In this document: piece by piece, positions 9,504 through 47,314 of the stretch
How the letters are laid out: the number at the start of each line of letters is the position of its first letter
How positions within the stretch are numbered: position 1 is the first letter of the stretch
Assembly: GCA_021821045.1 (NCBI GenBank)
Contig: JAKACW010000007.1
Span: 25,983 to 89,982, forward strand
DNA length: 64,000 nucleotides
Origin: Pseudomonadota bacterium
GTDB lineage: Bacteria > Pseudomonadota > Gammaproteobacteria > JAADHS01
Direction of reading: 5' to 3'
The notes under the pieces: generated by a model
The model's input: the letters and a program-made list of their open reading frames with translations, nothing else
The model's database searches: none
What the model was told of the DNA's origin: nothing
Position numbers and translations under genes: made by a program

Positions 9504-9632
9504 ACCGGCGCACCGTTTTTGTTAACGGTGGCAACAGGCTAACACCTCGGCACGGGCAGGTAAAGCGCGGCCGGATTCGCCGCGTGATCTCCTTCCGATA
9601 ATCAGCGATATTGTCGTGGGACCGACATCGTC

Positions 9633-13328: not shown

Positions 13329-13492
13329 ATGGTATCGCTGAACGACGGTCGTCAACTTCAATACCTCAACCGGAATTACGAAGCAACGACATACAATCTG
13401 AATTGTCCGACCGATTGACCAGCCCTCATCCGTTCGCTAAGCTGTGGCCAACAATTGGCCACCGGTTGGCCGGGTTTCCTGTGGAGGGCCGT

Positions 13493-13717
13493 ATGAGTTA
13501 TCACGACATCATCACGATCGAGCCTGGAAAGCGTGGTGGCAAACCATGTATTCGCGGAATGCGAATTACTGTTTACGATGTGCTTGATTACCTTGCTTCG
13601 GGAATGACTCCGGAGGAAATCGTTGCCGATTTTGACTATCTCACATTGGATGACATTCGTGCGTGCTTGGAGTATGCCGCTGATCGCGAACGGCACCAGT
13701 TGATTGTCACCGCATGA
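13493..13717 (+). CDS. DUF433 family protein (antitoxin-like)
   Basis: Region ITIEPGKRGGKPCIRGMRITVYDVLDYLASGMTPEEIVADFDYLTLDDIRACLEYAA is typical of DUF433. 4-nt overlap with the downstream partner. Confidence 0.6.
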   Translation: MSYHDIITIEPGKRGGKPCIRGMRITVYDVLDYLASGMTPEEIVADFDYLTLDDIRACLEYAADRERHQLIVTA

Positions 13718-14046
13718 AGTTGCTTTTCGACGAGAACCTGTCCCCGAGGCTCGTCAGTCTGTTGGCCGATATATTCCCGGATTCTCAGCACGTCGATCGC
13801 GTGGGGCTTGGCGCCGCGCCGGACAGTTCAGTCTGGGAGTATGCGCGGCAGCATCGCTTTACAATCATTAGCAAAGATTCGGATTTCCATGAGACAAGCC
13901 TTTTGCGGGGCAGCCCGCCAAAGGTGATATGGATCAAACGCGGCAACTGCAGCACCCGCGATATTGAAGCGATGTTGCGCGACAGAGTGGACCGGATACG
14001 TGTTCTGTTGGATGATCCCGAAGCCACCTACCTCATCCTGCTCTAA
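13714..14046 (+). CDS. DUF5615 / Mut7-C PIN-like domain protein (toxin-like partner of DUF433)
   Basis: MKLLFDENLSPRLVSLLADIFPDSQHV... is the N-terminal signature of DUF5615 PIN-like proteins. Genetically coupled to DUF433. Confidence 0.6.
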   Translation: MKLLFDENLSPRLVSLLADIFPDSQHVDRVGLGAAPDSSVWEYARQHRFTIISKDSDFHETSLLRGSPPKVIWIKRGNCSTRDIEAMLRDRVDRIRVLLDDPEATYLILL

Positions 14047-14063: not shown

Positions 14064-15299
14064 TTACTTCAGTTCAATCTGCTTTGGACTAATCGCAAGT
14101 CCATATGCGCCTTTCTTTCCGGCCGTTTCCAGCATCTTCTCAGAAATCTCGTAACGAATACCGTTCTCATCAAACACTTGCCGAGGCTCGAGCCAGCGCC
14201 GCAAGTTTTTCGGCAGATGCTCGTGAAGAATGTCATTGATACGAATGCAGCGGGAATCAAACCACGTAGTCCTCATACCGCTTTCGAGGGCTCTGATTGT
14301 TCGATCCTGGACGGGAAACCGGCGCTCGTCCAAATTCGACAGCATGTCAATCGCGTCGGTGTTGGCGAGTGTGTCATATTCGCCGACGTCGAAGCCCTCC
14401 AGGCGTAGCAATTCGTCCACGAACAGTCGTGACAAATCACTATCGTGCTCTTCTCCGGGCCGCCGCACTGTCGCCTCCCCGTCACGGGTGACCCGCGCCA
14501 GCATTCGGAAAAAGGCGTATTCGAGGGGCCCTATCTTAAGCGTCTCTTTGTGACCGTTCGCGCGATCCACGATCTGCACTTCGGCCCGGTCCGCCGGCAA
14601 ACACAGATGGATGTCATGGGGTCGATTGCCGAGGTCAAAAAGCGCCATGAGGTTCCGAAAACTCAACTGAGTCCCCAAACGCGACAACTCCTTCTCCGGC
14701 AGCTCCTCTCGCATTCGGATGAAAGGGATATCCGCCAAAACGACTTCTGCATCCTTGGGGTGAACGGTTCTTTTAAGACGGCTATTTTCAAGTACTGTGT
14801 CGTCTCGCGTCGGAAAAAAGAACCCGGGTACGCCTTCGAACTCCTCCGACACCAAAACATGGCTCAGGCAGTCCTGATGCCGCCCGAACAGGCTCATGGC
14901 ATACCCAAGATAAAAGGTCATCGTTTTCCTGCCGCCCGCGATCGATGCGTGAATGTTCACGTTGGCGTCTGTGGCAATATCCCGCACCTCCTGGGTGATG
15001 AAGTCCGCTAATGCCTCATGATCCGCGAGCGACCGGGCATCCTCGACCGGATTTCCGTTAGCGCCCGGGACGACGCGAATGTGATCGTCGCTGAACGAGG
15101 GCTGCGGCTGCTCGCACTGCGCGCAAAGGGCCGCGATTTGCCCGGCAAGCCCGCTGCTTATCGCAATGTCTTTTCCCCGCTGCGTCGTAATGATCCGGAT
15201 CGAATCCGGCCAGGCCAGCTTCTGTTTATTTATGGCGTAAAGCGTCTCCGTTACAACCGCCGGTGACAGGCCCGTCACGGCCAATAACATCGTTCTCAT
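14064..15299 (-). CDS. CRISPR-associated CARF-domain protein, Cas_NE0113 family-like
   Basis: N-terminus MRTMLLAVTGLSPAVVTETLYAI matches the signature start of the NE0113 CRISPR-associated family, which has a CARF Rossmann fold. 411 aa. Adjacent to csx1. Confidence 0.6.
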   Translation of the reverse strand: MRTMLLAVTGLSPAVVTETLYAINKQKLAWPDSIRIITTQRGKDIAISSGLAGQIAALCAQCEQPQPSFSDDHIRVVPGANGNPVEDARSLADHEALADFITQEVRDIATDANVNIHASIAGGRKTMTFYLGYAMSLFGRHQDCLSHVLVSEEFEGVPGFFFPTRDDTVLENSRLKRTVHPKDAEVVLADIPFIRMREELPEKELSRLGTQLSFRNLMALFDLGNRPHDIHLCLPADRAEVQIVDRANGHKETLKIGPLEYAFFRMLARVTRDGEATVRRPGEEHDSDLSRLFVDELLRLEGFDVGEYDTLANTDAIDMLSNLDERRFPVQDRTIRALESGMRTTWFDSRCIRINDILHEHLPKNLRRWLEPRQVFDENGIRYEISEKMLETAGKKGAYGLAISPKQIELK

Positions 15300-15450: not shown

Positions 15451-16656
15451 TCACCGCAATAGAACATCCAAAAGACTGCGCAATTCTTCGGCGACCTTCT
15501 CTTCATCCTTGGTGATCGTCGCATCACTTGCCATAGACGGTCGGTTTCCGTGGGCGAAGGCATTCCGAAATTTCGTCAAACGACCATACGCAGCACGCAG
15601 TGACTTTTCGCCCCGCTTGCCGTCATGGAATTCCGTTATTGCCTTGTCCCTGGTGGCATATTCGAACGCGCGTTCGTCGGCCCTTAACAGCGAGGTAATA
15701 AAAGCCTCCTGTGCAAATATGCACGCTCGCGGGTAGTCGCGCTGTTCAAGGAACAACCATGCCAACGATTTTTGATGAGCAACCAAATGGTTCGATTTTA
15801 CCCATGACATCCGCTCTTTTAATGCTGGCGCAAATAGCGCAGCCGTCGGTCCTAGATCACCGTCCAATACTGGCAAGAAGGTACCTAGACTCTGGCGCGC
15901 TTGGCTCACGTTGAAGGTACGTTCGTAGTATGCAGCTCTCTTGAGTGCCGCGAGTTTGTCGTCACCAATACCATCCTTCGCCAACAGCGGGACAAACACG
16001 CCGTAATCCGCGCTTTGATCGTACCGTGCAACGGCCTGCGCCCAATCCGCGAGATGCAGCAGACCACTCAGCTCATAAACCTGCGCCATGCCGGTGTCCG
16101 GATCGAAAAGACCGTAGTAAATGCCTTTAATCTGCGACTTGACGGCATCGCGCAGATAAAGGGCACTGATCAGGCCGAGCATGGGCAAGTGGCGAAAACC
16201 GTGGGTTACGTCCAATACAACCTCGTCATGTCGCGCCACGTGCGCAGCCAGCGCTCGAAGGATCTCGATCTGCTCGGCTTCGTCTTGACCGTATGGGATG
16301 AGATTGAGATGGATGGGTATGCCAACGCATTCTGACAGCAGCGGTTCCGCCCGCGCCAACAGGTCTGCAGACACCGCCTTGGCCTCCGTGGCCGCGATCA
16401 ATTCCAGCCGAAGGTCTTCGTCGCCGGTGTTTGCGGCCACAGTTTCCACGAGATGATCCCACATGCTGCCACTGGTACCGAGTATCACCAGTCTCTCGGG
16501 CTGGATCCGATTGCGCAGCGCCCAGCCAAAGAACGCTGTGGGTTCCGCCTCGACGCTGTCGGCGAAGCAGTAGCGTGTCTTGCGGTAACCATCGACACCT
16601 TTAGGAGAACGACCAAGAAAGCTGATCTGTACGCGTGCCAATGCTACTCCCTCCAA
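15451..16656 (-). CDS. csx1: Csx1 family CARF-HEPN ribonuclease (Cas_DxTHG)
   Basis: DVTHGFRH (DxTHG motif). C-terminal HEPN R-x4-H motif in KFRNAFAHG. 401 aa. Confidence 0.8.
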   Translation of the reverse strand: MEGVALARVQISFLGRSPKGVDGYRKTRYCFADSVEAEPTAFFGWALRNRIQPERLVILGTSGSMWDHLVETVAANTGDEDLRLELIAATEAKAVSADLLARAEPLLSECVGIPIHLNLIPYGQDEAEQIEILRALAAHVARHDEVVLDVTHGFRHLPMLGLISALYLRDAVKSQIKGIYYGLFDPDTGMAQVYELSGLLHLADWAQAVARYDQSADYGVFVPLLAKDGIGDDKLAALKRAAYYERTFNVSQARQSLGTFLPVLDGDLGPTAALFAPALKERMSWVKSNHLVAHQKSLAWLFLEQRDYPRACIFAQEAFITSLLRADERAFEYATRDKAITEFHDGKRGEKSLRAAYGRLTKFRNAFAHGNRPSMASDATITKDEEKVAEELRSLLDVLLR

Positions 16657-16665: not shown

Positions 16666-17673
16666 TTAGTCCGCCGCGAGCTGAAAGTGACCCAACCCCA
16701 TGGTCGTTCCCTTGCCCGCATGGACCCACTGCCCAAGCCAGAGGTACGGCCAGAATGGCGCCAGATCGTCACCCTGGATAGTGAACGAGCCGACGATGCC
16801 GTCCATAGCGATCCTCTTGTTCTGTCGCGACGAGTAGCGGTTCCACCGGTGCCAATGAAGATCGCGATTGATGATCTCCACTTTGCGCGATGCCGCAACC
16901 AGGCCCGCAAAATCGGTGTCTAGTGGAGTGCCTGTGTGGAAGTATTGCAGCATGGAAATACGGCGAAGGAGATTGGTGAAGAGGTCGGAAAAGGTCAATT
17001 CTTCGGATCTAACGATCTTGTTGTGCCGGGCTAGACGCAACGGCTGTTCAATTATCACCGTCACATTTTCGCGTAGCGCTACCAGCGCCGGCCTAGTTGG
17101 TCGAAGCGGGCGCAACTGCCCATCGTCAAGAATCTCATGCCATGCGGGCGGCACGCCAGGATCAGCCTGGCATACGCTCGAAAGTATCAGCCTGCCGTCG
17201 CCTCGGCCGACGCCGCGTTGGGTCGCTAACGCAAGTGCCTGTACAAACAGGCCTAGGAAGCGATTGCCATGCCCGACGAGGATCAACTCGACCTCCACCT
17301 GCTCTCCGGCGCGCACGAGCGAACCACTTTTCCCGCTCGGCCTCAGCAGATACGGATGAGGCGCGTTGGTGTACAACCGCATTCTTTCCGTGTTCGGCGG
17401 CGGTGGACTCAGAAACAAATAGCCGTAGGCGCACGCCAGTTGCTGCGGGCAGCCCTCGCACTGGGAAAAGCCCGTGATGCAGCTCAGTTCCCGCAACGCG
17501 TGCCCCAGCACACCGCGCCAGGTCGAGCCGCTAAACTCGGGCAATCGCACGCTTTCGATCGCGGTAAACGTCAGCAAATATTGGCCCAGCGGCAACATCG
17601 GCTGCGTCATAGCCGCGGCCGCTCGTGCAGCATCGCTCCTGACAGTCTCGGATTCAGCGGAAGCTAGCATCAC
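16666..17673 (-). CDS. cas6: Cas6-like crRNA endoribonuclease (putative)
   Basis: Extreme C-terminal glycine-rich loop HAGKGTTMGLGHFQL. N-terminal ferredoxin-like segment (YLLTFTAIESVRLPEFSGSTWRGVLGHAL). Cys cluster CITGFSQCEGCPQQLAC. ATGA overlap with the upstream gene. Confidence 0.55.
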   Translation of the reverse strand: MMLASAESETVRSDAARAAAAMTQPMLPLGQYLLTFTAIESVRLPEFSGSTWRGVLGHALRELSCITGFSQCEGCPQQLACAYGYLFLSPPPPNTERMRLYTNAPHPYLLRPSGKSGSLVRAGEQVEVELILVGHGNRFLGLFVQALALATQRGVGRGDGRLILSSVCQADPGVPPAWHEILDDGQLRPLRPTRPALVALRENVTVIIEQPLRLARHNKIVRSEELTFSDLFTNLLRRISMLQYFHTGTPLDTDFAGLVAASRKVEIINRDLHWHRWNRYSSRQNKRIAMDGIVGSFTIQGDDLAPFWPYLWLGQWVHAGKGTTMGLGHFQLAAD

Positions 17674-20201
17674 CGACGCCCCCGCTGCATCCTGTTTGAA
17701 CCACGCCCCCGATCACCGTACCGTTCGTTTTGTGACTGTTCTTTCGTATCGTCAGTCGGCAGGTAGCCTAGTCCCCGATTGGCGCTATTCAGTTCCGGCA
17801 GCGACTGGAAGCGCTTGCTGCTCATCGGGTCATTGTTCTTTAATTTCTCGTTGTTTACGAACCACTCATAGATGGCTGTCGCATCCGTGCGTTGCGCATC
17901 AGGCCGGGGATAATGCACCGGCAAGCCTCCGCCCGGAGCCGCGTTGATCAAGGCCTTCACGAACGGCACACCATCGAATGAACGGCTGCCGTAAGCTCGA
18001 CACACCGCCTCCTTGAAGGCGCTCTCCAACCTCGCGATGGCGGCATCGTCGCACTGCGTGATCGCGCTGTCAGCCCCGCCGCTCAGATCACGGTAACGCT
18101 GCGCCAGCTGCTGCCCACTGCGCAACGCCACCCCCTGAAGCTCCAGCCTGACGGAGCCGAAACCCAGGGGCTTGCCTCCCCCGAGGCGATGACAATGATC
18201 CGCCGGCCAGCGCAGCAGCCACAGCAAGGCGCCGAGTTCCACCTCACTCAAGTTGGTCACGTCGATATCGAAAATGAACTCCGCGCCGGGCTTGATCCAG
18301 GATTTGGTGGAGCGGTTCTGATTGCTGCGGGGCTTGTCGCCGGCATAACGGTACTCCCGGTACAACGTCTGACCATCGTTCGCTCGGACGGCTTCCGTGC
18401 CCGAGCCGCGGGCGGACCAGTACCCCGGCGCGCCGACAGTCAAGGCGTGATGGGGATAGACCTTGCGACCGCGCAGGGTCTGCCCCTCTTCCTTGACATA
18501 AAATGCCTCGACCTTGGAAGTTCCGGCTCCCGCAGAGAGCTTTTGCACATTGCCGTTCTTCTCGCTGCCGATATAGAACCGCGCCTGCGCCGGCTTGGGT
18601 TGTCCGAGAATCGCCAACGCGAGGCCATTGTCGTCCTCGATGGGCTCGATCGCCGCCGGCCCCGTCGTACACACAACGGGGCCAACACTCAGTTGGCCGC
18701 GCCAGGCTTCCTTGCCATTGTGGTAGTTGCTGACCCAGCCGAACACCCGCTCCGCCGGCGACAGTTGCGATCGATCCTTCGCCGGCATCAGACTGGAATC
18801 GATCAGAACGTTAGGCGCATCGCGATAAAGACCACGAGAAATCGTCACTGGATACAGATCGACGACGCGCCAGCCCACGTCCTTTTCTTTTTCCACCTTC
18901 GCATAGCACAAGGTGCCGGGTTCCAGCTTCTTCTCGGACTCTGCGAACTGCCTGGGATTGACGTGCCGAGACCATTCACAAGAAGGGTTATTTAACGCAG
19001 ATGGACGGGTAATTCCCGCGGCAATTTCTTCCTTGTGGATCTCTTGGTAATTGCTTATCAGTGCCGTCCAGCGCTGTTTCACTTCAACTGGGATCTGCAC
19101 CGTCTCCGCCGCGCCATCCACGAAGAACAAGCGTTCATCATGCTTGTTATTCATGTTGCGATTTGAAACAAATACCCAGCCCTCCACCCACTGGCGCGGC
19201 GTCCCCGCGTCAGGCATTGACCCGCTTTTGACTTGAGTTGCGGACACCAAATCCGTGGGACGCGGCGCACTGTCGTACGGCCTCATTCGAACGACGCGCC
19301 AGAATTTGAAACGATTCGAGCGATGATTCCACAACTCGATCTCGGCCCAAACCCGTTGACCATGCCGCAACAACTCTCGACCGGAACGAAGAAAGTGTTG
19401 ATCACGGTAGGCAGGAATCCACGCCGCATAAAGCGGCCCTGCCGGAGCACCGCCCCCACCAATTCTGCTCGTCCCCGTGAGCAACTGGGCCGTCTTGCCA
19501 TCCTCACCAATCCGAACCGGCACCACGGCTCCTCCGTCATTCGACGGCAGCCGCAGCCCCAAGGGATTTTCGTGCTTATCCAACGCGCCAAAGCGGCTGT
19601 TGGTCGCCGCCTCGAACACCGAGCGCAGCATTCCCTTAACCGTCGTGGTGGGAATGAGCGGGGCGCCATGGGCGTCGCAGCGGGTTTCGAAAATCTTGTG
19701 GCCCTGCTGTGTCGTCGGGGCGCGCGAGGCATCGGGAATGAGCAGAGGGGTTGCCACCGTAATCTTGACGCTCAGCCGACCGCTCCAACGGTCCGCCAAG
19801 TAAGCGTGATGCCCGCAAGGCGCACTGTCGCCGAGATCGGCGTCATTGGTGTTGCGCCTGGGCGCCGGGATGAAGTTGTACGGATTTTCGAACTTTTCGG
19901 TGCCCGCACGCGCCGCTCCGGCCGGACCGGCTTGTTGTGCTTGTGACGATTGAGGGTGCGGCTCTCCGACTCTCCAAATCAGAGAAACCTGGCCTTTGGA
20001 ATTTTTTACGTACTGGACCTCGATACCAACGAGATCATCCATCTTGCCGGTCCAAATGCGCTTCAACTCAGGACTGAGCATTGTTTCGTTTATCACACAG
20101 AGCTGCTCGCCATTGTTTGTCTTCTGCATGATGAAGAACTGTTTCTTTCTTCCTTTATCAACAGTCCGCAGCTGTATCGTCGACCTCAACTCCTCGCTCA
20201 T
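17670..20201 (-). CDS. Large Cas7-family RAMP protein with ~500-aa insertion (all1473-like). Start taken at MSEELRS.
   Basis: ENPYNFIPAP, then TTVKGMLRSVFEAATNSRFG (Cas7 GSSxKG-like loop), then a distant C-terminal G-rich loop LGGGKPLGFGSVRLEL. ATGA overlap with the upstream gene stop at 20198-20201. Confidence 0.6.
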   Translation of the reverse strand: MSEELRSTIQLRTVDKGRKKQFFIMQKTNNGEQLCVINETMLSPELKRIWTGKMDDLVGIEVQYVKNSKGQVSLIWRVGEPHPQSSQAQQAGPAGAARAGTEKFENPYNFIPAPRRNTNDADLGDSAPCGHHAYLADRWSGRLSVKITVATPLLIPDASRAPTTQQGHKIFETRCDAHGAPLIPTTTVKGMLRSVFEAATNSRFGALDKHENPLGLRLPSNDGGAVVPVRIGEDGKTAQLLTGTSRIGGGGAPAGPLYAAWIPAYRDQHFLRSGRELLRHGQRVWAEIELWNHRSNRFKFWRVVRMRPYDSAPRPTDLVSATQVKSGSMPDAGTPRQWVEGWVFVSNRNMNNKHDERLFFVDGAAETVQIPVEVKQRWTALISNYQEIHKEEIAAGITRPSALNNPSCEWSRHVNPRQFAESEKKLEPGTLCYAKVEKEKDVGWRVVDLYPVTISRGLYRDAPNVLIDSSLMPAKDRSQLSPAERVFGWVSNYHNGKEAWRGQLSVGPVVCTTGPAAIEPIEDDNGLALAILGQPKPAQARFYIGSEKNGNVQKLSAGAGTSKVEAFYVKEEGQTLRGRKVYPHHALTVGAPGYWSARGSGTEAVRANDGQTLYREYRYAGDKPRSNQNRSTKSWIKPGAEFIFDIDVTNLSEVELGALLWLLRWPADHCHRLGGGKPLGFGSVRLELQGVALRSGQQLAQRYRDLSGGADSAITQCDDAAIARLESAFKEAVCRAYGSRSFDGVPFVKALINAAPGGGLPVHYPRPDAQRTDATAIYEWFVNNEKLKNNDPMSSKRFQSLPELNSANRGLGYLPTDDTKEQSQNERYGDRGRGSNRMQRGRR

Positions 20202-20791
20202 TGCCCCTCCCCCACCATTGCCAGCCCCGTCAAGCGCTCCGCCAGCACGGCGCAATTGCCATCTTTCCCAGCCTCGCCCGTTGCGCGGCCGAAATATTCG
20301 CGATAATGCAGCGCCGCCCGGCGCCCACCCGCGCGCTCGGTCAGCGGCACGATCAGTTCACCGATGGCGGCCGTCGACAACCGTGTCCAGGCGCCATCGA
20401 GATCGTCGGCCTCTGCCGTCTGGCCCCACAGGATGTATTGGCCATCCTTCATCCCCTTCAGCTTCCCGACTTCCTTGCGATCCCAACCCGGTATATCGCC
20501 ATCGCTCTCGGTCAGATAGCCGGCGCGGCCGCTCTGGTCGCGCTGCGGGATTCGCAACCAGCGCAGCTCCCCCTGCGCATCGAAGAAGCGCGCCTCATAA
20601 ACGGTGTCAAGATCGAGCACGCCGCTCGCGCTGCATACCGCCCCCGCCTCATAGCGGACGAAGCCGGTCGCATGCGCGGCATAGTAAAACCCCACCAGAG
20701 CGCGCTCGCCCGCGACCACGCGCACCGCGTCCTGCAACCCAACTTCATTGTTAGTGAAACATAACAATCGAATGGTATCGGCCTCGCTCAT
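20198..20791 (-). CDS. Hypothetical protein within the type III effector operon (about 198 aa from MSEADTIR)
   Basis: Positioned between two RAMP genes with tight spacing. No family recognised; Csx19 is possible but unverified. Confidence 0.4.
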   Translation of the reverse strand: MSEADTIRLLCFTNNEVGLQDAVRVVAGERALVGFYYAAHATGFVRYEAGAVCSASGVLDLDTVYEARFFDAQGELRWLRIPQRDQSGRAGYLTESDGDIPGWDRKEVGKLKGMKDGQYILWGQTAEADDLDGAWTRLSTAAIGELIVPLTERAGGRRAALHYREYFGRATGEAGKDGNCAVLAERLTGLAMVGEGQ

Positions 20792-20792
20792 C

Positions 20793-22376
20793 TCATGCCC
20801 CGCTTGTCTGCTGATCCATCCACTGCGACCATGCCCGCTTCCACGTCTCGAGACGATCGCCGATCTCGCCAAAGTCGAATCGATCGTCCGCCGATTGCTT
20901 GCTTTGCACTACCCGCGTCTGACCTGACTCGTCCTGCCACTGCCACTCGATCATCGACACCTCGACGGTGCCGTAACCCCGGTTGGCACCAAAGCCGAAC
21001 TTGAGCCATCCTTCGCACCAATCGCGCATGACCGCGAACAACAGCGTGGCCGCCACTTCATCGGTCACCCCATCACTGCCCTCGCGCCCCAGACGCAAGC
21101 GCAATTCGATCGGCTCCCACTCGACACCATAGGGTTCAATCGCGGAGTACAGGGCACCGTCCACGGGCGCGGCGGTCCAGCGATCGACGGCAACATGAAA
21201 AGCCTGTTCGAACCCGGGGATGCGCTGGCCGAGCCGCTGGCCGAACGTTCCATGAATGTCAGCGGACTCCCCGCCCTTGGCAGAGGCCAGCCAATCCCAA
21301 TCGTTCCGGTCGATAGCCACATTCGACGAATAACAGCTGCCTATTCCCAACCAGCCGCGCGCGCCGCTGTCGAGGCTGACCGCTGACTCACCTCCCTTTT
21401 TGATCTTCTTGCCGCGCGCATGACCGAACAAGTCCGTGACGATGGGCGCATCGAGCTGCGCCAAATGACGCTCACCCACCCGCACGCTTTCCCAGCCTTC
21501 AGCACCGAGTCCCAATACGGTGCGCACGATTCTCTCGGCCTGGGCGCGCAACACGCCCTTGATCGAACTACCGGGCAGCACCAGTCGCAGCTTGGCGCCA
21601 TCCGCGGACATCAAGGGAAGCATGTCCACGGCCAGGCCGTCCTGGCCCGCCATGACCATCAAAGGGCCTTTCGGCTGCCAATGCACGCGCACCGTCAACG
21701 TGCGGGAATTCACCGGCCGGACAGCCGCAGCCTGACTCCACAATTCCTTATCCGCGCCATCACTCTCCCGGCGCAACACGGCCAGCACGCCCGTACGACT
21801 GGTCCAATCCTGCTCGCGACATTGCGCCTCCAGCAGTTCAACGCGCGCCAGACCGCGCGTCGAGCCGGCACCGATGCCGATCTCCCGCCGCTCCAACGCC
21901 GTCTTCAAATGCCACAACAGTGCGCGCCCCTCGTCCGCCATTGCATCATTTGACGCATCCAGACGCACGCAGAAACTGAACTGTGTCCCCCGCGGCAACA
22001 CCATGCGCTCATACTTGACCCTCGTCGCCGCCACGCCGTACTGGCGGTCGATGCCGTTGCCGTGCCAAACCTCCGGCACCGGGTCCCCCCTGGCCACGGC
22101 ATCATCGACGATGATGCGGCTGGCCGAACCTACATCGCTGCCCCATTGGATGCCACCCCACAGGGATGTCGGCCCGTCCTCATCGCCAACATGACCGCGC
22201 GCCCACTCGCGCAACGCCCCGGTCAACGATGTCCCTGGAATGTAATAGCGCCCTTGGCCGTTCATGCTCAGCGGCATGTCGACCTCCAGCCCGTCATCGG
22301 CCGAGCCCACATGCAGTGGATCGATGGCACGGAGCGTGCCCGTCAGAATGAGACGTCTCGCTAACGATCTCGCCAT
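20793..22376 (-). CDS. Double Cas7 (RAMP) fusion protein
   Basis: Two RAMP modules: LTGTLRAIDPLHVGS...RYYIPGTSLTGALRE and LRLVLPGSSIKGVLRAQ. C-terminal G-rich loop GFGANRGYGTVEV. Confidence 0.7.
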   Translation of the reverse strand: MARSLARRLILTGTLRAIDPLHVGSADDGLEVDMPLSMNGQGRYYIPGTSLTGALREWARGHVGDEDGPTSLWGGIQWGSDVGSASRIIVDDAVARGDPVPEVWHGNGIDRQYGVAATRVKYERMVLPRGTQFSFCVRLDASNDAMADEGRALLWHLKTALERREIGIGAGSTRGLARVELLEAQCREQDWTSRTGVLAVLRRESDGADKELWSQAAAVRPVNSRTLTVRVHWQPKGPLMVMAGQDGLAVDMLPLMSADGAKLRLVLPGSSIKGVLRAQAERIVRTVLGLGAEGWESVRVGERHLAQLDAPIVTDLFGHARGKKIKKGGESAVSLDSGARGWLGIGSCYSSNVAIDRNDWDWLASAKGGESADIHGTFGQRLGQRIPGFEQAFHVAVDRWTAAPVDGALYSAIEPYGVEWEPIELRLRLGREGSDGVTDEVAATLLFAVMRDWCEGWLKFGFGANRGYGTVEVSMIEWQWQDESGQTRVVQSKQSADDRFDFGEIGDRLETWKRAWSQWMDQQTSGA

Positions 22377-22396
22377 GACTAGTAGCCCCCTCCCAA

Positions 22397-24676
22397 TTAT
22401 TGGCGCTCGCGCGCGCGCAGCTCGCTGCGAATCGCAGCAATCCACAATGCGCGGAGCGCATCCCAGCGCAGCTCCGGGAAATCCTCCAGATCAGCCCCGC
22501 CCAGCAAGGCCCCGCCCGCCTTGTCGTTGATGAGCTTGAATGCCCTTGTTGGATCCTTTTCCAAGCAATCCCTTAACTCATCGCGCGTTCGATCGTTCCA
22601 GTTGTCGACACGGTTCTTCACTGCGCCCAGGTGCTGCAACCACTCGCGCGCGCGTTGGCGCGCGGCGTCGTCTTTTACCGCCACGACCACACTGCGCAAG
22701 GCACCGAGCTGACTGTTGGTCGGTTTGCCCGGCGCCAATCCAAGCGTGTCTTTTCTGAAAGAAGCGCTCCCGGCCAGCTCGACGGCATAACGCTCGATGT
22801 CGCGCCGGGAGGCTCTGAGCCGCAACCGTCGAATGAATGCCTGATCCTCCTTGCTAAGAGAATGCGCCGATCCTTCCTCGTCCCTGCGATCGAGCGACGC
22901 CCTCTTGCTTTTGAGTGTGTCCTCTTCCAGCACCGGCGCATTGAAACGCACCTCACCGTAGCCCTCGGCCACGCGCTCACCCAGACCGCGCATTTCCAGC
23001 GCCAGCGACTTCTGGCCATCGACATTCCCGTCCGCTTGAAAACGCACGACGGTCCCCGCTGCCAGGCCGACATACGAGGGCCGCGGCAAATTCCACGCAT
23101 GGCGCCACCCTTCACTGCGTCGCATTCGCGCAAATGAGTTTTCACTGGCTCGAAGGCCCACGCCCAACTCCTTTTCCAACTCGACGCGCAAGACCTCGGT
23201 GTCAGCGCAGGGCGCCAGCGTTGCATCACGCAGCAGCAGGTCCGAACACAGCCAGACGTCGAGATAGGCGCAGGGCGGCCGCGGCATCGGGTCGTCCTCA
23301 GCCTTGAAAGCAATGCGAACGCGACCGAAGTCATCCTTCTTCGCCTTACCCAAGCGATACTCACCAGCACCGTCGGCCAGCAACGCCCCTTCAAGCTTGT
23401 CTGCAACGGCCGCCGTCATCACGATTTCCGAGACATAACGCAATCCGGCTGGCAGCGCCTCGAAGGTATAGACTCCCCCCACTTCCGACGTCGGCCTCTG
23501 GGTCTCGTCCTCGATCGTGCCGTGAGTAAACGCTTCGACGGACGGCTTGAGGTGATAGAGCAGCTTCGCCTGATGATCGTAGGCCAGATAGCCCTCGCGC
23601 ATGGGTTTGCGCTGAATGCTATCCCCAGGCTCGCCCTCGAGAAAATTGCTGACATCCGCCCCGTTGCTTTTCTCCTTCGGCGTGTGGAAAGACAAGGGAA
23701 TCGGCAGCCCGCGTTGGTTATGGGTCAGAGGATAGGCATTCAGCACCCGCAGTTCACCGCGCGCCACGCAGCCGAAGTACGCTGACCCGACCGCTCGCGC
23801 CATGCGCTCATTCAATGCCGACAGCAGGAAGGTTCCCGGGATGTAATCCTGACTGGTGACCACGTTACCCATTACCGCCTGCGCAATCACCACCGGCGAC
23901 AGCAGATCGATCTCCACGCGCAGACGCTTCCACCCGCCATCTTCGGCGTGGCTCCCTCGCGGCGTGAAGCGCTTGGGCTCCGTCACTCTCTCAGTGACGA
24001 TTGCCGGGGGATCGCCAGCGAGAACCTTCAGCGCGTCCTCGGCCGCGATCAGGTCGCCCACACCAAAGTGGCAGCGCCCCAACCCACGGCGACGATTGGC
24101 CCCGAGGCGCTCGACGACTCGAGCCCCCGCCCACAACAACGCCAGCATGGCTTGCGTCTGTGCTTGGTCCTCGGGCAGGCTCACGACACAATCGGCCGAC
24201 AGGACACAACCCCCGATCGCCACCTCCTCCAGCCGCAGACAGTCCTCCTCCGCAACGCCGCGCGCATCCAGCTTCACGCCGGGCTTGATGAACGTCAGTC
24301 CTTGCCGCAGACCGCTCTCTTGCTCCAGCTCGGCCCGCACGGACTCCGACAAGCGCGCTTCGCGCACCGATAAGTGCGCGGCCAGCGGCGCACGTCGCCG
24401 CCGACTACCCTTGCCCGACTCATCGATCGCGCCAAATATCGCTCGCACGACATCGGCCCACGTGGCAGCCGCGCCACTCTCGCTATCCAGCCCCGCCGCA
24501 ATCTGCTCGCAGGCGTCACGCCAGATTCCGGTCAGCGTCTTGGCCGGAACATAAGGCAGATCATCCTGCGGATGACGGCGGATCAGACTATCGATGAAGC
24601 CGGGCGCGCCCGCGCCTTGGCTGACCTGCCAATCGCTATCGAAACGGACCTTGAGTGTGAATGCTTTGTTGATCAT
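22397..24676 (-). CDS. Multi-domain RAMP protein: Cas7-like plus a second RAMP (Cas5-like?) plus a C-terminal alpha-helical (Cas11-like?) domain
   Basis: Start FTLKVRFDSDWQVSQGAG...LPYVPAKTLTGIWRDA (Cas7-like). G-rich loops GANRRRGLGRCHFGV and RLGKAKKDDFGRVRI. Second RAMP core DYIPGTFLLSALNE. Helical Arg/Glu-rich tail. 759 aa. Confidence 0.6.
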   Translation of the reverse strand: MINKAFTLKVRFDSDWQVSQGAGAPGFIDSLIRRHPQDDLPYVPAKTLTGIWRDACEQIAAGLDSESGAAATWADVVRAIFGAIDESGKGSRRRRAPLAAHLSVREARLSESVRAELEQESGLRQGLTFIKPGVKLDARGVAEEDCLRLEEVAIGGCVLSADCVVSLPEDQAQTQAMLALLWAGARVVERLGANRRRGLGRCHFGVGDLIAAEDALKVLAGDPPAIVTERVTEPKRFTPRGSHAEDGGWKRLRVEIDLLSPVVIAQAVMGNVVTSQDYIPGTFLLSALNERMARAVGSAYFGCVARGELRVLNAYPLTHNQRGLPIPLSFHTPKEKSNGADVSNFLEGEPGDSIQRKPMREGYLAYDHQAKLLYHLKPSVEAFTHGTIEDETQRPTSEVGGVYTFEALPAGLRYVSEIVMTAAVADKLEGALLADGAGEYRLGKAKKDDFGRVRIAFKAEDDPMPRPPCAYLDVWLCSDLLLRDATLAPCADTEVLRVELEKELGVGLRASENSFARMRRSEGWRHAWNLPRPSYVGLAAGTVVRFQADGNVDGQKSLALEMRGLGERVAEGYGEVRFNAPVLEEDTLKSKRASLDRRDEEGSAHSLSKEDQAFIRRLRLRASRRDIERYAVELAGSASFRKDTLGLAPGKPTNSQLGALRSVVVAVKDDAARQRAREWLQHLGAVKNRVDNWNDRTRDELRDCLEKDPTRAFKLINDKAGGALLGGADLEDFPELRWDALRALWIAAIRSELRARERQ

Positions 24677-25044
24677 GCTGATTTCCCTTCTGCACGCTCA
24701 ACCGTGTTTTCAGGCACGAAGAACGGAATCGAGACCAACGCATCAAGGAACCGTGTCACTCTGGTCGGCGGCTCGCCCTGCGCCGGCCCATCATCGAAGA
24801 ACAGCCCGCCCTTGCCAAACACTGCGTCAAGCTCCTTATAACGATGCCGAAGCAAGTCGAGCCTCGCCTCAGCGGTCGCGCCGCTGCGCATCAACTCAAA
24901 GCGCAACCCGTGGAGCTGACTTGCTGGAACATTGCTGCGACCGCTGTCCCTATCACGAGCCAGCATGGCCGCAGCCATGCGGCGCAGATCGCCCAGACGG
25001 TGCTGGGCTACCCATCGCGCCGAGTCCTCGCGCATGCCCGCCAA
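24673..25044 (-). CDS. Small alpha-helical protein; candidate Cas11 (small subunit)
   Basis: 123 aa between the Cas10-like gene and the RAMP genes. ATGA overlap with the downstream gene. Call is by position and size only. Confidence 0.3.
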   Translation of the reverse strand: MAGMREDSARWVAQHRLGDLRRMAAAMLARDRDSGRSNVPASQLHGLRFELMRSGATAEARLDLLRHRYKELDAVFGKGGLFFDDGPAQGEPPTRVTRFLDALVSIPFFVPENTVERAEGKSA

Positions 25045-25086
25045 TCTTTCGGCCGGCGTTACGACATAAGGTCCTGCAAAAAGTCT

Positions 25087-26409
25087 CTACGTGATCGCCT
25101 GACCACCGGCATCGCACTGCTGTTCAAGCTGCGAGCGCAGGTCATCGAGCCCAGTGAATGAAGCGTCGAATAACACATGGAAGTCCAGTGACGAACATGG
25201 ATATGGTCTGTCGTCTCCGTCTGCGGTTCGGACCCGCTGCTTAACCGGATCCTTGGCCTGCTTGATCAATTCGGAAGCCAATTCATAAGCGCTGAAGAAC
25301 GGAAACTGCGGCTTGACGATCGCCACGCCGGCGCCCGCGCCGAGATAAGACACGCCGAATGCCCGCTTGGCGATCTCGGAACTGGTCGGTCCCTGTGCGA
25401 TAGCATCTTCGAAAGCGGCCAGATACGTTTCGGTGAACTCCAGCGCGTAAACGCCGTCGATCAGCACCGTGAGATCATCACCGCCCACCACCAGGGGAAC
25501 GACCGGCAAAATGCTCTTGGACTTTCGCCGCCGACGTGGATGGGGCCGCTTCGCCAGAAGCTTACAGGCCTCCGTGAAAGCCTGCTCAGCGGCCGCATCG
25601 ATGTCCAGCGAAAATTCGCGGAAGGTTTGAAGGTAGGCGGATTTGTCATCGCCGCAATACTTCTCGAAGTTCAAGATGATCTGTCCGAACCCGCTCCCGT
25701 CGGCATGCACCACGGCCAGCCAGTCAGCACCCAAATCATCGATCTGATCGGCCAGCTCCAATTCTCTGCTGGATTCGTCGACCGACCGGATCATCCTGAG
25801 GGCGCGATCACGCCACTTCTTTCGAACTTCCTGATCCGACTTCGACACACACATCTGCGAAGTCGTCTCGCCACCGTCAGGACGATTCGCCGCGCCACCG
25901 GAGTGGGCGCAGGGCGCAACGAAAGGCAAACGGGCGAAGCGTGCCAGCGGCTGCGGCCGCGTCGAGCGAATCTGGTTGAACCGCTGATGAAGCTGCACCA
26001 TCACCTGCGGCAGCTTAAGCGGGTCATCGAATTCTTGAATCGCACCGCACACATCCAGGCCCGGCGCCTCTTGCAACGCCCGCAACGTCACGGCCTCGAT
26101 GACGTTCTCTGCCTTATCCTTTGCATCAGTCACAAACAAGGCCTTGCCGGATACCGCGGTGACGACTTCAAAGCCACCCTGGGCACCCGGCTGGCGCAGC
26201 GGCGTGCGCTGCTGACGCAATTTCTCTCGCATCCGTTGGGGGTCGTCGCTCCAGAAACTGGCCCCCCCATTCTCCGCGATGGCTTCCAGCACCCATTGCG
26301 TTCCGGCTCGGTAGATCAGCTCCGAGGCACCCACGTTTTCCCGCAGTTTGTTGGTCGCGAAAACGTAGCTTTGATTACCCGAAGTTTCGATCAGAACAAG
26401 AAACGGCAT
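25087..26409 (-). CDS. cas10: Compact Cas10-like Palm/cyclase protein lacking an HD domain (GGDD motif)
   Basis: Palm strand LAVVHADGSGFGQI and catalytic VVGGDDLTVLIDG. Possible degenerate N-terminal palm FLVLIETSGNQSYVF. No HD motif. Only 440 aa. Confidence 0.6.
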   Translation of the reverse strand: MPFLVLIETSGNQSYVFATNKLRENVGASELIYRAGTQWVLEAIAENGGASFWSDDPQRMREKLRQQRTPLRQPGAQGGFEVVTAVSGKALFVTDAKDKAENVIEAVTLRALQEAPGLDVCGAIQEFDDPLKLPQVMVQLHQRFNQIRSTRPQPLARFARLPFVAPCAHSGGAANRPDGGETTSQMCVSKSDQEVRKKWRDRALRMIRSVDESSRELELADQIDDLGADWLAVVHADGSGFGQIILNFEKYCGDDKSAYLQTFREFSLDIDAAAEQAFTEACKLLAKRPHPRRRRKSKSILPVVPLVVGGDDLTVLIDGVYALEFTETYLAAFEDAIAQGPTSSEIAKRAFGVSYLGAGAGVAIVKPQFPFFSAYELASELIKQAKDPVKQRVRTADGDDRPYPCSSLDFHVLFDASFTGLDDLRSQLEQQCDAGGQAIT

Positions 26410-26557: not shown

Positions 26558-27409
26558 CTAATCCCGCTGGGGGCTTCCCTTTCCGCGACATACCGTTTCC
26601 CCCAAGAACACCACGCCCTCGTAGACTTCGCATACTCGCGTTTTGCGCGCATTCAATTGCAGCCCGAGCCGCCGCAACGCCTTCTCCGCCAACGCGTGGG
26701 CCGTTCGGGAAGAGTCCACGTCTGGCGTCATCAACAAAAAATCATCCGCATAGCGCACAAACGTAATGTTCGCTCGCGCCATTGCGCGATCAAATGCATG
26801 TAAGTAAAGGTTGCACAGAAACGGCGAAATCACGGCCCCTTGCAGCAAACCGCGCCTACCCTGAAGCAGGCCCGAGGTATGAGGCCCTACGTCCAACCAG
26901 GCCTTTACCAAGTTTAAGAGCCAACGATCGCCGAAAGTTCGCTTTACCATGCGCAAGAGAGGGCCATGCGGCACCCGATCGAAGAACTTTTCGATATCGG
27001 CGTCCACCACCCAACGCAACCCCGTATGCACCCGTTCCCGGACTTTCCGCAACGCATGAGGCACACCCCGACCGGGCCGATAGCCGAAGCTGTCGTGATG
27101 GAAGAACGCTTCCGCTCGCGGCTCCAGCACTTGCAGAATCAATCGCTGGGCAAATTTGTCGCGCCGATATTGGGCCGACAGCACGCGCCGTCCCCCATCG
27201 CCCTTTTTCACGGCCCATTGGCGGATCGGCAGCGGCCGATACCGGCCCTCGCGCAACTCTTCGACAATCGTCAACAGATGAAACGGCGAATTCTTCTGCA
27301 AATCTTGCTCCTCGGTACCGGGTGCCCAAGGCGCCGCATCATTGCGCAGCACGCGCCACGCTTGCTTCACATTCGCCGCACAAAGCGCCGTGGTCATGAT
27401 ATCGCCCAT
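26558..27409 (-). CDS. Reverse transcriptase (group II intron-like RT domain, no maturase or endonuclease)
   Basis: RT motifs FGYRPGRGVPHA, WVVDADIEKFFDRV, AVISPFLCNLYLH, YADDFLL, LQLNARKTRV. Second Met at 27397 forms an ATGA overlap with the cas1 stop. Confidence 0.85.
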   Translation of the reverse strand: MGDIMTTALCAANVKQAWRVLRNDAAPWAPGTEEQDLQKNSPFHLLTIVEELREGRYRPLPIRQWAVKKGDGGRRVLSAQYRRDKFAQRLILQVLEPRAEAFFHHDSFGYRPGRGVPHALRKVRERVHTGLRWVVDADIEKFFDRVPHGPLLRMVKRTFGDRWLLNLVKAWLDVGPHTSGLLQGRRGLLQGAVISPFLCNLYLHAFDRAMARANITFVRYADDFLLMTPDVDSSRTAHALAEKALRRLGLQLNARKTRVCEVYEGVVFLGETVCRGKGSPQRD

Positions 27410-28413
27410 GGGTTTTCTTCCTCGCTTCGGCCGAGGACTTTCTGAAAATCGTTGACCACGCCCCTCGCTGCCGTGTCGATGGATTGCTCCTCGGCAACCT
27501 GATCGTCTGCGGTCTCGCCCGGCTGCTCAGCTTGGCGCGCACGCGCCGGCCACTGATCGCACCACAGTCGCCACGCACCATAAAAGCGTGAGCGTGCTTC
27601 CTTCGATAAACGGCAGCCTTCGTGGTCGCTCAGTGTGAAATCCGCCGGTGTTACTTGGCCATCTAACAACCGCAGCACGAAAAGATCCACGCCTGGACGC
27701 AACGCCTCCATCAAGTCGAGCGACAATCCCGGCCGTGCCGGCGCCACTTCATGCAAAAACCCGAGATAGGGATCAAACCCCGCGGCGCACGCTTGGCGAT
27801 GCACCACTCCCAGAGCAAGCGTATAGCCCAACGACAGCATCGCATTCACCGGATCGCGCGGGGGTCGCCGATTGCGCGATTCGAACATCCAATGGGGCGC
27901 CATTTGCGATCGCAGCCAGGCATACCACGCTTTCGCGGCCCGCCCTTCGACGCCCATCAACGCCGCATTGTCCCGAGCCAAAGCCGTATCTTGTTGGCAT
28001 TGGGTCAGAATCGCGCTGCACTCCTGGCCGATTCCCAATCGCTGCAATAGATCACAACCGGCCGCCAACTTCTCCCGCACCATCCAACGTGCCAGAACAA
28101 GACGCCGCCCAAGTTCCTGATATGCGCGGTACTGCCGGGCCCGCCAGTGCACGAAAGAACTCAGGCCACTTCCCAGCCAACACACCTCCCCCTTGCCCCG
28201 CGCCGGCATCAGCGCCACGGGTACGGCACTGTCCGCCAACGCGCGCCATACATCGCAGCGAACCGACGGACTACCGTACACCACCACCGATCCGAGCACC
28301 GCAAGTGGCACCCGTTTAAACGCACCATCGGCGTAATCGATGCGCAAAGCCTTGTTCTCGACGCTGACACTCAGATCGCGCCTGTCGAGTATCAGCGTCA
28401 ACCCGCCGCTCAT
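27394..28413 (-). CDS. cas1: CRISPR-associated endonuclease Cas1
   Basis: Start MSGGLTLILDRRDLSVSVENKALRI. Conserved RRPPRDPVNAMLSLGYTLAL Cas1 motif. The track ORF extends further upstream to 28530. Confidence 0.85.
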   Translation of the reverse strand: MSGGLTLILDRRDLSVSVENKALRIDYADGAFKRVPLAVLGSVVVYGSPSVRCDVWRALADSAVPVALMPARGKGEVCWLGSGLSSFVHWRARQYRAYQELGRRLVLARWMVREKLAAGCDLLQRLGIGQECSAILTQCQQDTALARDNAALMGVEGRAAKAWYAWLRSQMAPHWMFESRNRRPPRDPVNAMLSLGYTLALGVVHRQACAAGFDPYLGFLHEVAPARPGLSLDLMEALRPGVDLFVLRLLDGQVTPADFTLSDHEGCRLSKEARSRFYGAWRLWCDQWPARARQAEQPGETADDQVAEEQSIDTAARGVVNDFQKVLGRSEEENPWAIS

Positions 28414-28760
28414 GCCGCCCTCCCGAAACCGGCCAGCAACCGGGCCAGTAACGACGCCCTTTCGGGTTCCGCGGTCGCCGCCACTTCCGCCACAGGCTGC
28501 CCGGGGCTTGCCATGGCATCGTTCAGCCACAAGCCCGCCGGATGCGGAACGGGATACGCACGCAAGTCGTCTTCAGCAAGATCCATCAGCCCGCTGACTT
28601 CATCGAGAACCTGGGTCAGCCCGTTGCGGTTCGCGCACACCAGGAACACCGATTCCTGTAAAGCCATGCCACGGCGCGAAATGCAGCGATGCACCCGTTG
28701 CAACCGACGCGAGTCGCAAATGTCATAGGACACCAAATGCCAGCGCTTCGAAAAGTCCAT
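28410..28760 (-). CDS. cas2: CRISPR-associated endoribonuclease Cas2 (paralogue a)
   Basis: WHLVSYDICDSRRLQRVHRCISRRGMALQESVFLVC...EDDLRAYPV fits the Cas2 fold signature. Stop overlaps the cas1 start. Confidence 0.7.
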   Translation of the reverse strand: MDFSKRWHLVSYDICDSRRLQRVHRCISRRGMALQESVFLVCANRNGLTQVLDEVSGLMDLAEDDLRAYPVPHPAGLWLNDAMASPGQPVAEVAATAEPERASLLARLLAGFGRAA

Positions 28761-28777: not shown

Positions 28778-29062
28778 TTAAGCCACGTGCAGCCAGCGGC
28801 GGAACAGACTGTCCTGGTCACCCACGCCCCGTCCGTTGACTTCCGCATTGGGCGACAACCAAGCCAGCATCAACTTGTCCCCTTGCGGATCGATCAGCTC
28901 CAGGAGCTGTACGTACAACTCCTCGGCCTCCTTGTGGTTGAGTAAGCACTCGTGCACGGACTTCTGCCCGTCGATGCGCCACTGCTGAAGGCGTTTATGA
29001 ACACGCCGACGGCGAACGGGGTTGCCGATGTCGTACGCGATGATGGCGGGTTTGCGTTTCAT
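28778..29062 (-). CDS. cas2: CRISPR-associated endoribonuclease Cas2 (paralogue b)
   Basis: MKRKPAIIAYDIGNPVRRRRVHKRLQQWRIDGQKSVHECLL...GDKLMLAWL (Cas2-like). Start chosen at MKRKP. Confidence 0.65.
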   Translation of the reverse strand: MKRKPAIIAYDIGNPVRRRRVHKRLQQWRIDGQKSVHECLLNHKEAEELYVQLLELIDPQGDKLMLAWLSPNAEVNGRGVGDQDSLFRRWLHVA

Positions 29063-29133
29063 ATGTTTTCCTCCGGTGGTTGTGATCTTGTGAATGACGC
29101 ACATCGTATGCGCCACAGCTCGGTTCAGGGCGT

Positions 29134-29149
29134 TTCGCAAGCTTGCGAA
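29134..29149. promoter_or_regulatory. Perfect 16-bp palindrome TTCGCAAGCTTGCGAA between cas2b and the CRISPR leader; candidate operator
   Basis: Seen directly. A near-identical copy TCGCAAGCTTGCGA lies at 31524-31537 on the other flank of the array. Confidence 0.35.
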
Positions 29150-29296
29150 GTTTCGCCGCGCCGATGGCGTGGAATTCCGCGGGTTGCCGGCGAGCCGTCC
29201 GCGCTTGACTGGCGAGGCGACGATTGAGGTAGAATTCCGCGCATCGACCTTTGTTCTTTTACAATTTGAAACTGAACGCGCTGCGCGAGCACATCA

Positions 29297-29330
29297 CCGG
29301 CCGCGAAAAAGCTAACTTTTTCGCGGCCGG
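29297..29330 (+). terminator. Perfect 15-bp-stem hairpin followed by TTGACT and a T-rich tract; intrinsic-terminator-like element at the leader boundary
   Basis: ccggccgcgaaaaag-ctaa-ctttttcgcggccgg then ttgactcaaaattttttggtt, seen directly. Confidence 0.4.
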
Positions 29331-29393
29331 TTGACTCAAAATTTTTTGGTTACTAAGCTATTGATTGAGCCGCGGTTTGGAAATGTGACAAGG

Positions 29394-31897: not shown

Positions 31898-32178
31898 ACG
31901 GCTATGACATCATCGGCGACATACACGGCCACGGCGCCGAGGACCAGCGCGGGGTGCTTGCCATCGTGCGGCCTGTGGTGAATTGTGGAAGCGCGCTTGC
32001 GGTGATGGGAAATCACGAATTCAATGCCGTGTGTTTTCACACTCGCCATCCCGAATCCGGCCGCCCTCTGCGCGACCATACGCCAAAGAACCTGACGCAG
32101 CATCAAAGCTTCTTACAACAGTTTCCTCATCCCGCTCGGGATTTATACCCAGAACTTTTCGGACATCCGCCAGGGTGA
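31894..32178 (+). pseudogene. Truncated calcineurin-like metallophosphoesterase (ApaH/PrpE-like) N-terminal fragment
   Basis: MNGYDIIGDIHGHG...VMGNHEFN has GDxHG and GNHE motifs. It lacks the GDxxDRG motif and stops after ~95 aa, where full-length enzymes are about 220-250 aa. Confidence 0.45.
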
Positions 32179-35110: not shown

Positions 35111-35132
35111 CGCCGTCCACAGAGACACCGCT

Positions 35133-47310: not shown

Positions 47311-47314
47311 CTCC

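Follow-up and report, generated by a model that had tools for sequence, protein, structure and literature searches.

The 64,000-nt stretch of contig JAKACW010000007.1 analysed here (the window) carries a compact cas locus on its minus strand, between about 14 and 29 kb, and the effector genes of this locus occupy the region under study (16666–26409). The translations of the open reading frames (ORFs) were searched with NCBIfam, Pfam and PADLOC models, and PDB sequence searches (HMMER and BLAST) were run with each effector protein. The ORFs of the region were confirmed on the minus strand; they form a tightly packed operon encoding fused repeat-associated mysterious proteins (RAMPs), as had been proposed in an earlier reading of the letters alone (the sequence-only reading), and the assignments to RAMP, Cas10, Cas6 and reverse transcriptase (RT) made in that reading are backed by all three model collections. 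The genes are transcribed in the order cas2, cas2, cas1, RT, cas10, cas7-cas5-cas11, cas7-2x, csx19, cas7-insertion, cas6, csx1 and an NE0113-family CARF gene. Most of the start/stop overlaps claimed for this operon are present, with ATGA at 24673–24676 between the cas10 frame (its downstream part, ORF B) and cas7-cas5-cas11, and at 20198–20201 between csx19 and cas7-insertion. That between cas1 and the RT gene exists only if RT begins at its second methionine, the junction between cas7-insertion and cas6 is a TGATG overlap instead, and the supposed overlap between the cas10-like gene and ORF B is an in-frame TAG codon. The cas2 and cas1 genes are also joined by an ATGA overlap, and cas7-2x and csx19 are separated by 1 nt. 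Homology, gene order and conserved catalytic residues very strongly suggest that a complete CRISPR-Cas locus of type III-Dv, the variant of subtype III-D with fused subunits, occupies the region, with a nonsense cas10 allele in this lineage; the activities themselves are predicted from sequence.

The type III-Dv operon of Synechocystis sp. PCC 6803 consists of cas10, cas7-cas5-cas11, cas7-2x, csx19 and cas7-insertion, with an adjacent cas6 (bioRxiv 10.1101/2022.06.13.496011), and the genes cas10, cas7-cas5-cas11, cas7-2x, csx19, cas7-insertion and cas6 follow one another in the same order here. The structure of the Synechocystis complex has been deposited as 8S9T, 8S9U, 8S9V and 8S9X (Schwartz et al., Nat Commun 2024, PMC11026444). 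The best PDB match of each effector protein is the corresponding chain of these entries, mostly as the only strong match, with HMMER and BLAST identities to the Synechocystis subunits of roughly 35–45%. Full-length III-D models of PADLOC also match each effector protein, including models for a fused Cas7-Cas5, a double Cas7 and a Cas10 of about 400 residues.

The cas7-cas5(csx10)-cas11 fusion (22397–24676) encodes 759 aa, the size initially given, and its approximate domains lie at 24032–24676 (Cas7), 22922–23929 (Cas5) and 22400–22879 (Cas11). Residues 8–698 align with residues 6–715 of 8s9t_A, the Synechocystis ‘Cas7-Cas5-Cas11’ chain (E 4.1e-99), and the protein has partial matches to Csx10/TIGR02674 and Csm3 in NCBIfam, a RAMP domain in Pfam and matches to the fused Cas5_IIId models of PADLOC. 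The cas7-2x gene (20793–22376) encodes two fused Cas7 domains; it matches 8s9t_D, ‘Cas7-2x’, from residue 1 of the chain (E 1.6e-82) and, over its full length, the PADLOC model Cas7_IIId PDLC02115 (5e-104), with two RAMP stretches in Pfam. The protein starts at Met24 of the 550-aa ORF on which the sequence-only reading was based, and is thus 527 aa long. The gene that this reading left unidentified is csx19 (20198–20791; 197 aa), located between cas7-2x and cas7-insertion, which scores 97.3 bits against TIGR03984 (cut-off 35) and matches 8s9t_B (E 3.6e-15); it carries PF27799 in the gene calls of an ENA contig from the same lineage (L001). The cas7-insertion gene (17670–20201) belongs to the TIGR03986/all1473 family (2.7e-91; 307.7 bits against a cut-off of 161) and matches 8s9t_E (E 5e-156). 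Its product, counted from Met19 of an ORF originally given as 861 aa, has 843 aa, and the large insertion reported in its Cas7 fold is present, although it measures about 480 rather than about 500 aa; it lies between the Cas7 loop TTVKGMLRSV and the glycine-rich loop GGGKPLGFGS. The cas6 gene (16666–17670; 334 aa) matches PF10040 (1.4e-16) and, over its full length, the PADLOC Cas6 model (8e-94).

The eight motifs originally quoted were all found: in addition to the two loops of Cas7-insertion, PYVPAKTLTGIWRD, GLGRCHFG and DDFGRVRI are present in the 759-aa protein, and YYIPGTSLTGALRE, VLPGSSIKGVLRA and GFGANRGYG in the two-Cas7 protein. The Synechocystis complex cuts RNA at three sites via D26 of Cas7-Cas5-Cas11 and D33 and D246 of Cas7-2x, all experimentally mutated. 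D29 of Cas7-Cas5-Cas11 aligns with the first of these residues, and D33 and D251 of Cas7-2x with the other two. The description as a type III-D effector built from fused multi-domain RAMP proteins thus stands, with TIGR03984 and TIGR03986 above their cut-offs and Csx10/TIGR02674 matched in part.

About 100 aa at the N-terminus of Cas7-insertion (19887–20201, minus strand) lie outside the TIGR03986 model. This region matches no Pfam family and is barely conserved in related loci, a tblastn search of 80 of them giving a single weak match (E 0.03). An AlphaFold2 single-sequence model of the N-terminal 105 residues was too poor for a fold search, with a mean predicted local distance difference test score (pLDDT) of 53 and a predicted template modelling score (pTM) of 0.37. 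The equivalent 112 residues of the Synechocystis protein are unresolved, and are called ‘uncharacterized’ in the cryo-electron microscopy (cryo-EM) paper (PMC11026444).

The cas10 gene (24673–26409) is of the III-Dv type and forms a single frame of 578 codons, with an amber at codon 441. The 440-aa ORF that had been taken for a tiny Cas10 ends at this TAG (25087–25089; Tyr441 to amber, a single-base difference at window position 25087), and beyond it another 137 codons without a stop, which include the 123-aa ORF B (24673–25044), bring the frame to 24673. ORF B by itself matches no family in NCBIfam, Pfam or PADLOC; it lies in the same frame as cas10, aligns with residues ~455–570 of 8s9t_C and corresponds to the alpha-helical, small-subunit-like C-terminal domain of Cas10. 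The read-through protein aligns with residues 19–570 of the 575 of 8s9t_C (E 1.8e-94), straight across the stop and including a PYVVT motif, and the score rises from 277 bits for the 440-aa part to 320 bits for the whole frame. The Cas10 frame is also recognized by the PADLOC Cas10 model (2.5e-106) and by the Cas10 palm2 model of Pfam. The two ORFs are, therefore, one frame split by TAG, and the ‘tiny Cas10’ is a truncated 578-aa gene rather than a feature of the system. In keeping with the sequence-only reading, this Cas10 has no HD domain: its N-terminus begins directly with the palm domain. The GGDD motif (residues 309–312) is invariant across the aligned family, whereas the ‘HDD’ triplet of Synechocystis (H354 D355 D356) is not conserved, the aligned residues being G340, P341 and T342. 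Given the palm-first N-terminus and the G-P-T at this site, DNA cleavage by Cas10 is not expected.

The cluster at 90% identity that contains the 440-aa protein includes an intact protein of 578 aa (P0121), identical except for a tyrosine at position 441. Its sources are contigs of three independent metagenome assemblies from Logan (L003, L004 and L005; SRR33230277, SRR33230236 and SRR33230247), all of which read TAC; over 7.1–13.1 kb, they match the window except for TAC instead of TAG at 25087 and one synonymous change in one contig. The ENA contig L001 and a contig of an NCBI metagenome-assembled genome (L002) carry TAG and show no difference from the window other than in the CRISPR array. 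The 31 aligned Cas10 relatives are all 551–618 aa long, and none is split. P447 of the PYVVT motif is invariant in these relatives, and L443, Y448, V449, V450 and T451 are nearly so. The TAG is located two codons before L443 and six before P447, and the first possible restart codon after it is Met459, where gene callers annotate an ORF of 120 aa. The conserved residues 443–451 lie between the stop and this methionine, and neither fragment would therefore contain them. A conserved internal start for the C-terminal domain was considered and rejected, as Met459 is found in none of the 31 relatives. ARAGORN detected no tRNA, and therefore no suppressor tRNA, in the window, which also contains no Rfam family at the gathering threshold, and a promoter/terminator scan of 24.5–31.7 kb yielded nothing exceeding shuffled expectation. 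As judged from these alignments, the TAG marks an ordinary III-Dv cas10 that has recently acquired a nonsense mutation, and it is no part of the architecture. The solved complex shows the C-terminus of Cas10 as a helical element, similar to a small subunit, running along the Cas7 filament (PMC11026444), and losing it should impair assembly or activation.

Relatives of this system are widespread. A search with the read-through Cas10 gave 767 proteins with E values ≤1e-10 among the 8000 candidates scored; among the matches listed, nearly all were 550–620 aa long with 97–99% query coverage, and the nearest were about 43–45% identical. A scan with one genome per species placed Cas10 relatives in 508 genomes, including cyanobacteria, Acidobacteriota, Planctomycetota, Parabeggiatoa, Accumulibacter and Thiobacillaceae. 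The proteins of the window were compared by tblastn with the 80 related loci kept, and gene order was scored in the 47 loci that extend for at least 8.5 kb beyond cas10 on its downstream side. Of these, 45 contain the four other effector genes, and 44, from several phyla, have them in the same order; csx1, NE0113-family CARF genes, RT and cas1 are each found again in the vicinity in some of the related loci.

The adaptation genes precede cas10 on the minus strand. The CRISPR-associated RT (26558–27409; 283 aa) overlaps the end of cas1 and matches PF00078 (6.8e-34), the PADLOC RT model (9e-88) and the RT part of the PADLOC RT-Cas1 fusion model. It is encoded by a separate gene downstream of cas1, not as an RT-Cas1 fusion, and the RT beside cas1 and the separate cas6 gene both agree with the initial description. 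The cas1 gene (27394–28413; 339 aa) matches PF01867 (6.6e-61) and TIGR00287 (8e-49), and upstream of it lies a tandem pair of cas2 genes (28410–28760, 116 aa, and 28778–29062, 94 aa), both matching PF09827 (6.5e-13 and 8.5e-11) and TIGR01573. The CRISPR array (29394–31505, plus strand) consists of 30 identical 36-nt repeats, GTTCAAACGTGTCCCTGACGAAGAAGGGATTGAGAC, and 30 spacers of 32–34 nt, with a degenerate terminal repeat at 31470–31505. At the end of the repeat stands ATTGAGAC, an 8-nt 5' handle typical of type III. With this ending and with the degenerate repeat at the far end, the leader most likely lies beside cas2, at 29063–29393, and the array is most likely read on the plus strand, divergently from cas2. 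Megablast found no match to the array, searched as a whole, in 50,697 phage records, and no protospacer was found elsewhere in the window with up to five mismatches. Contigs L001 and L002 have a different spacer beside the leader-proximal repeat (window 29430–29461), with arrays collapsed to two repeats; turnover of spacers, or mis-assembly of short reads across the array, may account for this.

Two CARF proteins are encoded at the other end of the locus, also on the minus strand. The csx1 gene (15451–16641) encodes a CARF-HEPN protein (TIGR02221 8e-50; PADLOC CARF_HEPN 1.2e-129) with a DxTHG CARF motif and an R-x4-H HEPN motif, RNAFAH, from residue 364, and is predicted to be an RNase activated by cyclic oligoadenylate (cOA). 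Homologues of csx1 follow cas7-insertion in 10 of the 47 related loci, and the only match in a PDB sequence search with Csx1 was at 0.077. The NE0113-family CARF protein (14064–15299; 411 aa) matches TIGR02584 (1.1e-62), PF09623 (4.6e-39) and PADLOC CARF5 (2e-94), with no solved relative in a PDB sequence search, and is predicted to be a cOA sensor or ring nuclease. Codon 5 of its gene contains the sole other difference between the window and L003 over 13 kb, a synonymous TTA/CTA at position 15287. A third ancillary gene, csx16 (VVA1548 family; 34591–34965, plus strand; 124 aa), matches PF09652 (3.1e-35) and TIGR02620 (114 bits, cut-off 46). It lies about 3 kb beyond the array, divergent from a gene for an AAA+ protein, and is probably part of the same CRISPR-Cas locus; a csx16 homologue directly follows cas7-insertion in one related locus (L076).

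The AAA+ gene (32021–34326, minus strand), between the array trailer and csx16, encodes N-terminal transmembrane segments and two AAA+ domains resembling those of SpoVK, CbbX and EccA. It is intact in contig L004 (232–2547; 771 aa), whereas a 10-bp deletion at ~33729 splits it into ORFs of 214 and 560 aa in the window and in L001. Together with the cas10 amber, this makes two disruptive mutations specific to the lineage of the window, which differs from a co-occurring lineage in almost nothing else, and two such changes among only three or four differences are suggestive, though not proof, of decay or counter-selection. The AAA+ gene was considered as a recurrent III-Dv neighbour and rejected, as it had no tblastn match in the 80 related loci. 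At the edge of the locus, directly beside the NE0113-family CARF gene, a DUF433/DUF5615 (PIN-like) gene pair (13403–14046, plus strand) constitutes a probable toxin-antitoxin module. Palindromic repeats built around the core GTGGGAGCGGATCATTCCGCGATT and its reverse complement are also dispersed in the window (6596–6669, 7525–7652, 9619–9789, 34832–35146, 37732–37820, 42791–42841, 45229–45319 and 47234–47322), some in short tandem runs with a spacing of 97 nt; they look like intergenic elements of the REP (repetitive extragenic palindromic) or BIME (bacterial interspersed mosaic element) type rather than a second CRISPR array.

The locus is, thus, a divergent, RT-associated member of a family already described and structurally solved, and its ancillary genes, adaptation genes and array are typical surroundings. 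It has its five effector genes in common with Synechocystis III-Dv (CRISPR2), arranged in the same order, followed by cas6 and with full-length homologues (E 4e-15 to 5e-156), as well as the three catalytic aspartates and the GGDD motif, an HD-less Cas10, Csx1 as an ancillary effector and about 100–110 N-terminal residues of Cas7-insertion that are extra to the Cas7 fold. It differs in its non-cyanobacterial, probably proteobacterial host, in its apparently chromosomal location, adjoining der/bamB-type genes, in the RT and the two cas2 genes of its adaptation module, in the presence of an NE0113-family CARF protein and Csx16, in the G-P-T that replaces ‘HDD’ and in the amber at cas10 codon 441.

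The Synechocystis complex contains one copy of each subunit on a 37-nt CRISPR RNA (crRNA; bioRxiv 10.1101/2022.06.13.496011), and it makes cOA and activates Csx1 in vitro, both abolished by mutations of the palm (PMC11026444). By homology, Cas7-Cas5-Cas11, Cas7-2x, Csx19, Cas7-insertion and Cas10 would assemble here, one copy each, on a crRNA processed by Cas6 and bearing an 8-nt 5' handle, and the insertion domain would expose the crRNA's 3' end as a seed. D29, D33 and D251 would cleave complementary RNA, once bound, at three positions spaced by 6 nt, and a non-self 3' anti-tag would activate the Cas10 palm (GGDD) for the synthesis of cOA, which would turn on the CARF-HEPN RNase encoded by the adjacent csx1 gene. 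As ring nucleases or regulators, both the NE0113-family CARF protein and Csx16 are candidates. New spacers would be added by RT, Cas1 and Cas2, possibly from RNA. In the present lineage, the change of Tyr441 to amber is predicted to remove the C-terminal small-subunit-like domain and the PYVVT motif of Cas10. Signalling through cOA is, as a result, probably crippled, but RNA may still be cleaved by the Cas7 backbone.

The sequence-only reading had presented the locus as a possibly undescribed variant of III-D. In favour of this view, the ORF list does contain a 440-aa Cas10 followed by a 123-aa ORF without a family match, and the nearest Cas10 relatives are only about 43% identical. An undescribed variant or new subtype, with a partition of two, three and one RAMP domains, a tiny Cas10 and a separate small-subunit gene, is nevertheless very improbable: this partition and gene order are exactly those published and solved as III-Dv, with five full-length homologues matching chains A to E of 8S9T end to end, the order is that of almost all the related loci scored, and both ORFs belong to a single frame, interrupted by a codon that reads TAC in the sister contigs and represented intact by P0121. 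When the family-model check proposed with the sequence-only reading was run, the proteins fell into Cas families, and a standard III-A or III-B gene set, with separate Csm2-5 or Cmr1,3-6 subunits and an HD-bearing Cas10, was not found: matches to Csm3, Csm5, Cmr4, Cmr6 and Cmr2 are partial and below threshold, and the subunits are fused, with an HD-less Cas10. The locus resembles III-D1 in its Csx10-type Cas5, Csx19, TIGR03986-related Cas7 and HD-less Cas10, and in the order of the domains along the operon. However, III-D1 systems have separate genes for Cas7, Csx10, Cas11, Csx19 and Cas10, whereas Cas7, Cas5 and Cas11 form a single polypeptide here, a second fusion joins two more Cas7 domains, and a large insertion is present in the last Cas7.

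The earlier likening to III-D2 does not hold either. III-D2 systems consist of Cas7x3, Cas7-5 and Cas10 with CorA, without csx19 and cas11 (Mitsuda et al., Nat Commun 2026, PMC13294483); they cut RNA at one site and make S-adenosylmethionine-AMP (SAM-AMP) and SAM-AMP2 for CorA (PMC13294483). Fused RAMP subunits, a terminal Cas7 domain with an insertion and a compact Cas10 are common to III-D2 and the present locus, which, unlike III-D2, combines csx19 and a Cas11 domain with a fusion of two Cas7 domains and with CARF effectors; no CorA family was detected by NCBIfam or Pfam in the scanned ORFs, which lie between 13.4 and 35 kb. Cas7-11e (gRAMP) of III-E and Cas7-11i of III-I have related Cas7 and insertion domains, seen as partial matches, and would share with the present system an RNA-guided RNase activity of fused Cas7 domains, but they are single-protein effectors without Cas5 and a cyclase-type Cas10, both of which are present here. 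A III-D2, III-E or III-I system, with a Cas7x3 or Cas7-11-like effector and SAM-AMP/CorA or protease signalling, could be invoked on the strength of weak partial matches to the Cas7-11 structures and to the Cas7-11e (NF041225, 25–105 bits) and Cas7-11i (NF049957, 25–37 bits) models, and of the match of the Cas7-insertion protein to 9wxh_D, a 1235-aa chain of the TIGR03986 family (1.5e-20). These model scores are far below the curated cut-offs of 700 and 800 bits, respectively, the III-Dv chains match better by 60–135 orders of magnitude, and Cas5, Csx19, the Cas11 domain and a cyclase-type Cas10 are found where CorA, Csx29 or Cas7x3 are not, making this explanation extremely improbable.

The identification as III-Dv with a nonsense cas10 allele has points against it. 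With Cas10 relatives no closer than about 43–45% identity, the locus may depart from Synechocystis in details such as the kind of cOA made and how many active sites there are, and the Cas10 of the related III-D2 makes SAM-AMP, not cOA (PMC13294483). SAM-AMP signalling seems unlikely here, however, because CARF proteins, and no CorA, are encoded in the locus. The TAG itself could be an assembly or read error shared by the three assemblies that carry it (the window, L001 and L002), which may all derive from one read set. The codon might, accordingly, truly be TAC, or Cas10 might be split into a 440-aa cyclase and a Cas11-like piece of about 120 aa; that the amber is not a loss of function in one of these two ways is unlikely. 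A consensus error would be compatible with non-independent assemblies, but TAG is read in two assemblies besides the window, and the neighbouring AAA+ gene of the same lineage bears a frameshifting 10-bp deletion, which fits decay. A split Cas10 is favoured by the position of the TAG near the point where Palm2 gives way to the helical C-terminal domain, by the small-subunit-like nature of this domain in the solved complex and by the 120-aa ORF annotated from Met459; on the other hand, both pieces would lack L443, P447, Y448 and the V, V and T that follow, the methionine is peculiar to this sequence, and the relatives are unsplit and of full length. Loss of function of an ordinary III-Dv cas10 remains the preferred interpretation. 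That two Cas10 pieces work as split large and small subunits and that the AAA+ protein is an unrecognized ancillary component are possibilities. It is also conceivable, but improbable, that the lineage of the window is a natural snapshot of selection against the cOA arm of III-Dv with retention of the Cas7 RNase backbone, as a first step on the route of Cas10 loss thought to lead to III-E.

For CRISPR classification, these results are of little consequence, as the locus is a divergent member of a family solved by cryo-EM and found in hundreds of species. They do indicate that a check for an in-frame stop is needed before an apparent miniature Cas10 with an orphan small ORF beside it is called a new architecture. 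The TAC and TAG alleles, carried by otherwise identical contigs, constitute a natural pair for studying the role of the Cas10 C-terminal domain in the assembly and signalling of III-Dv complexes.

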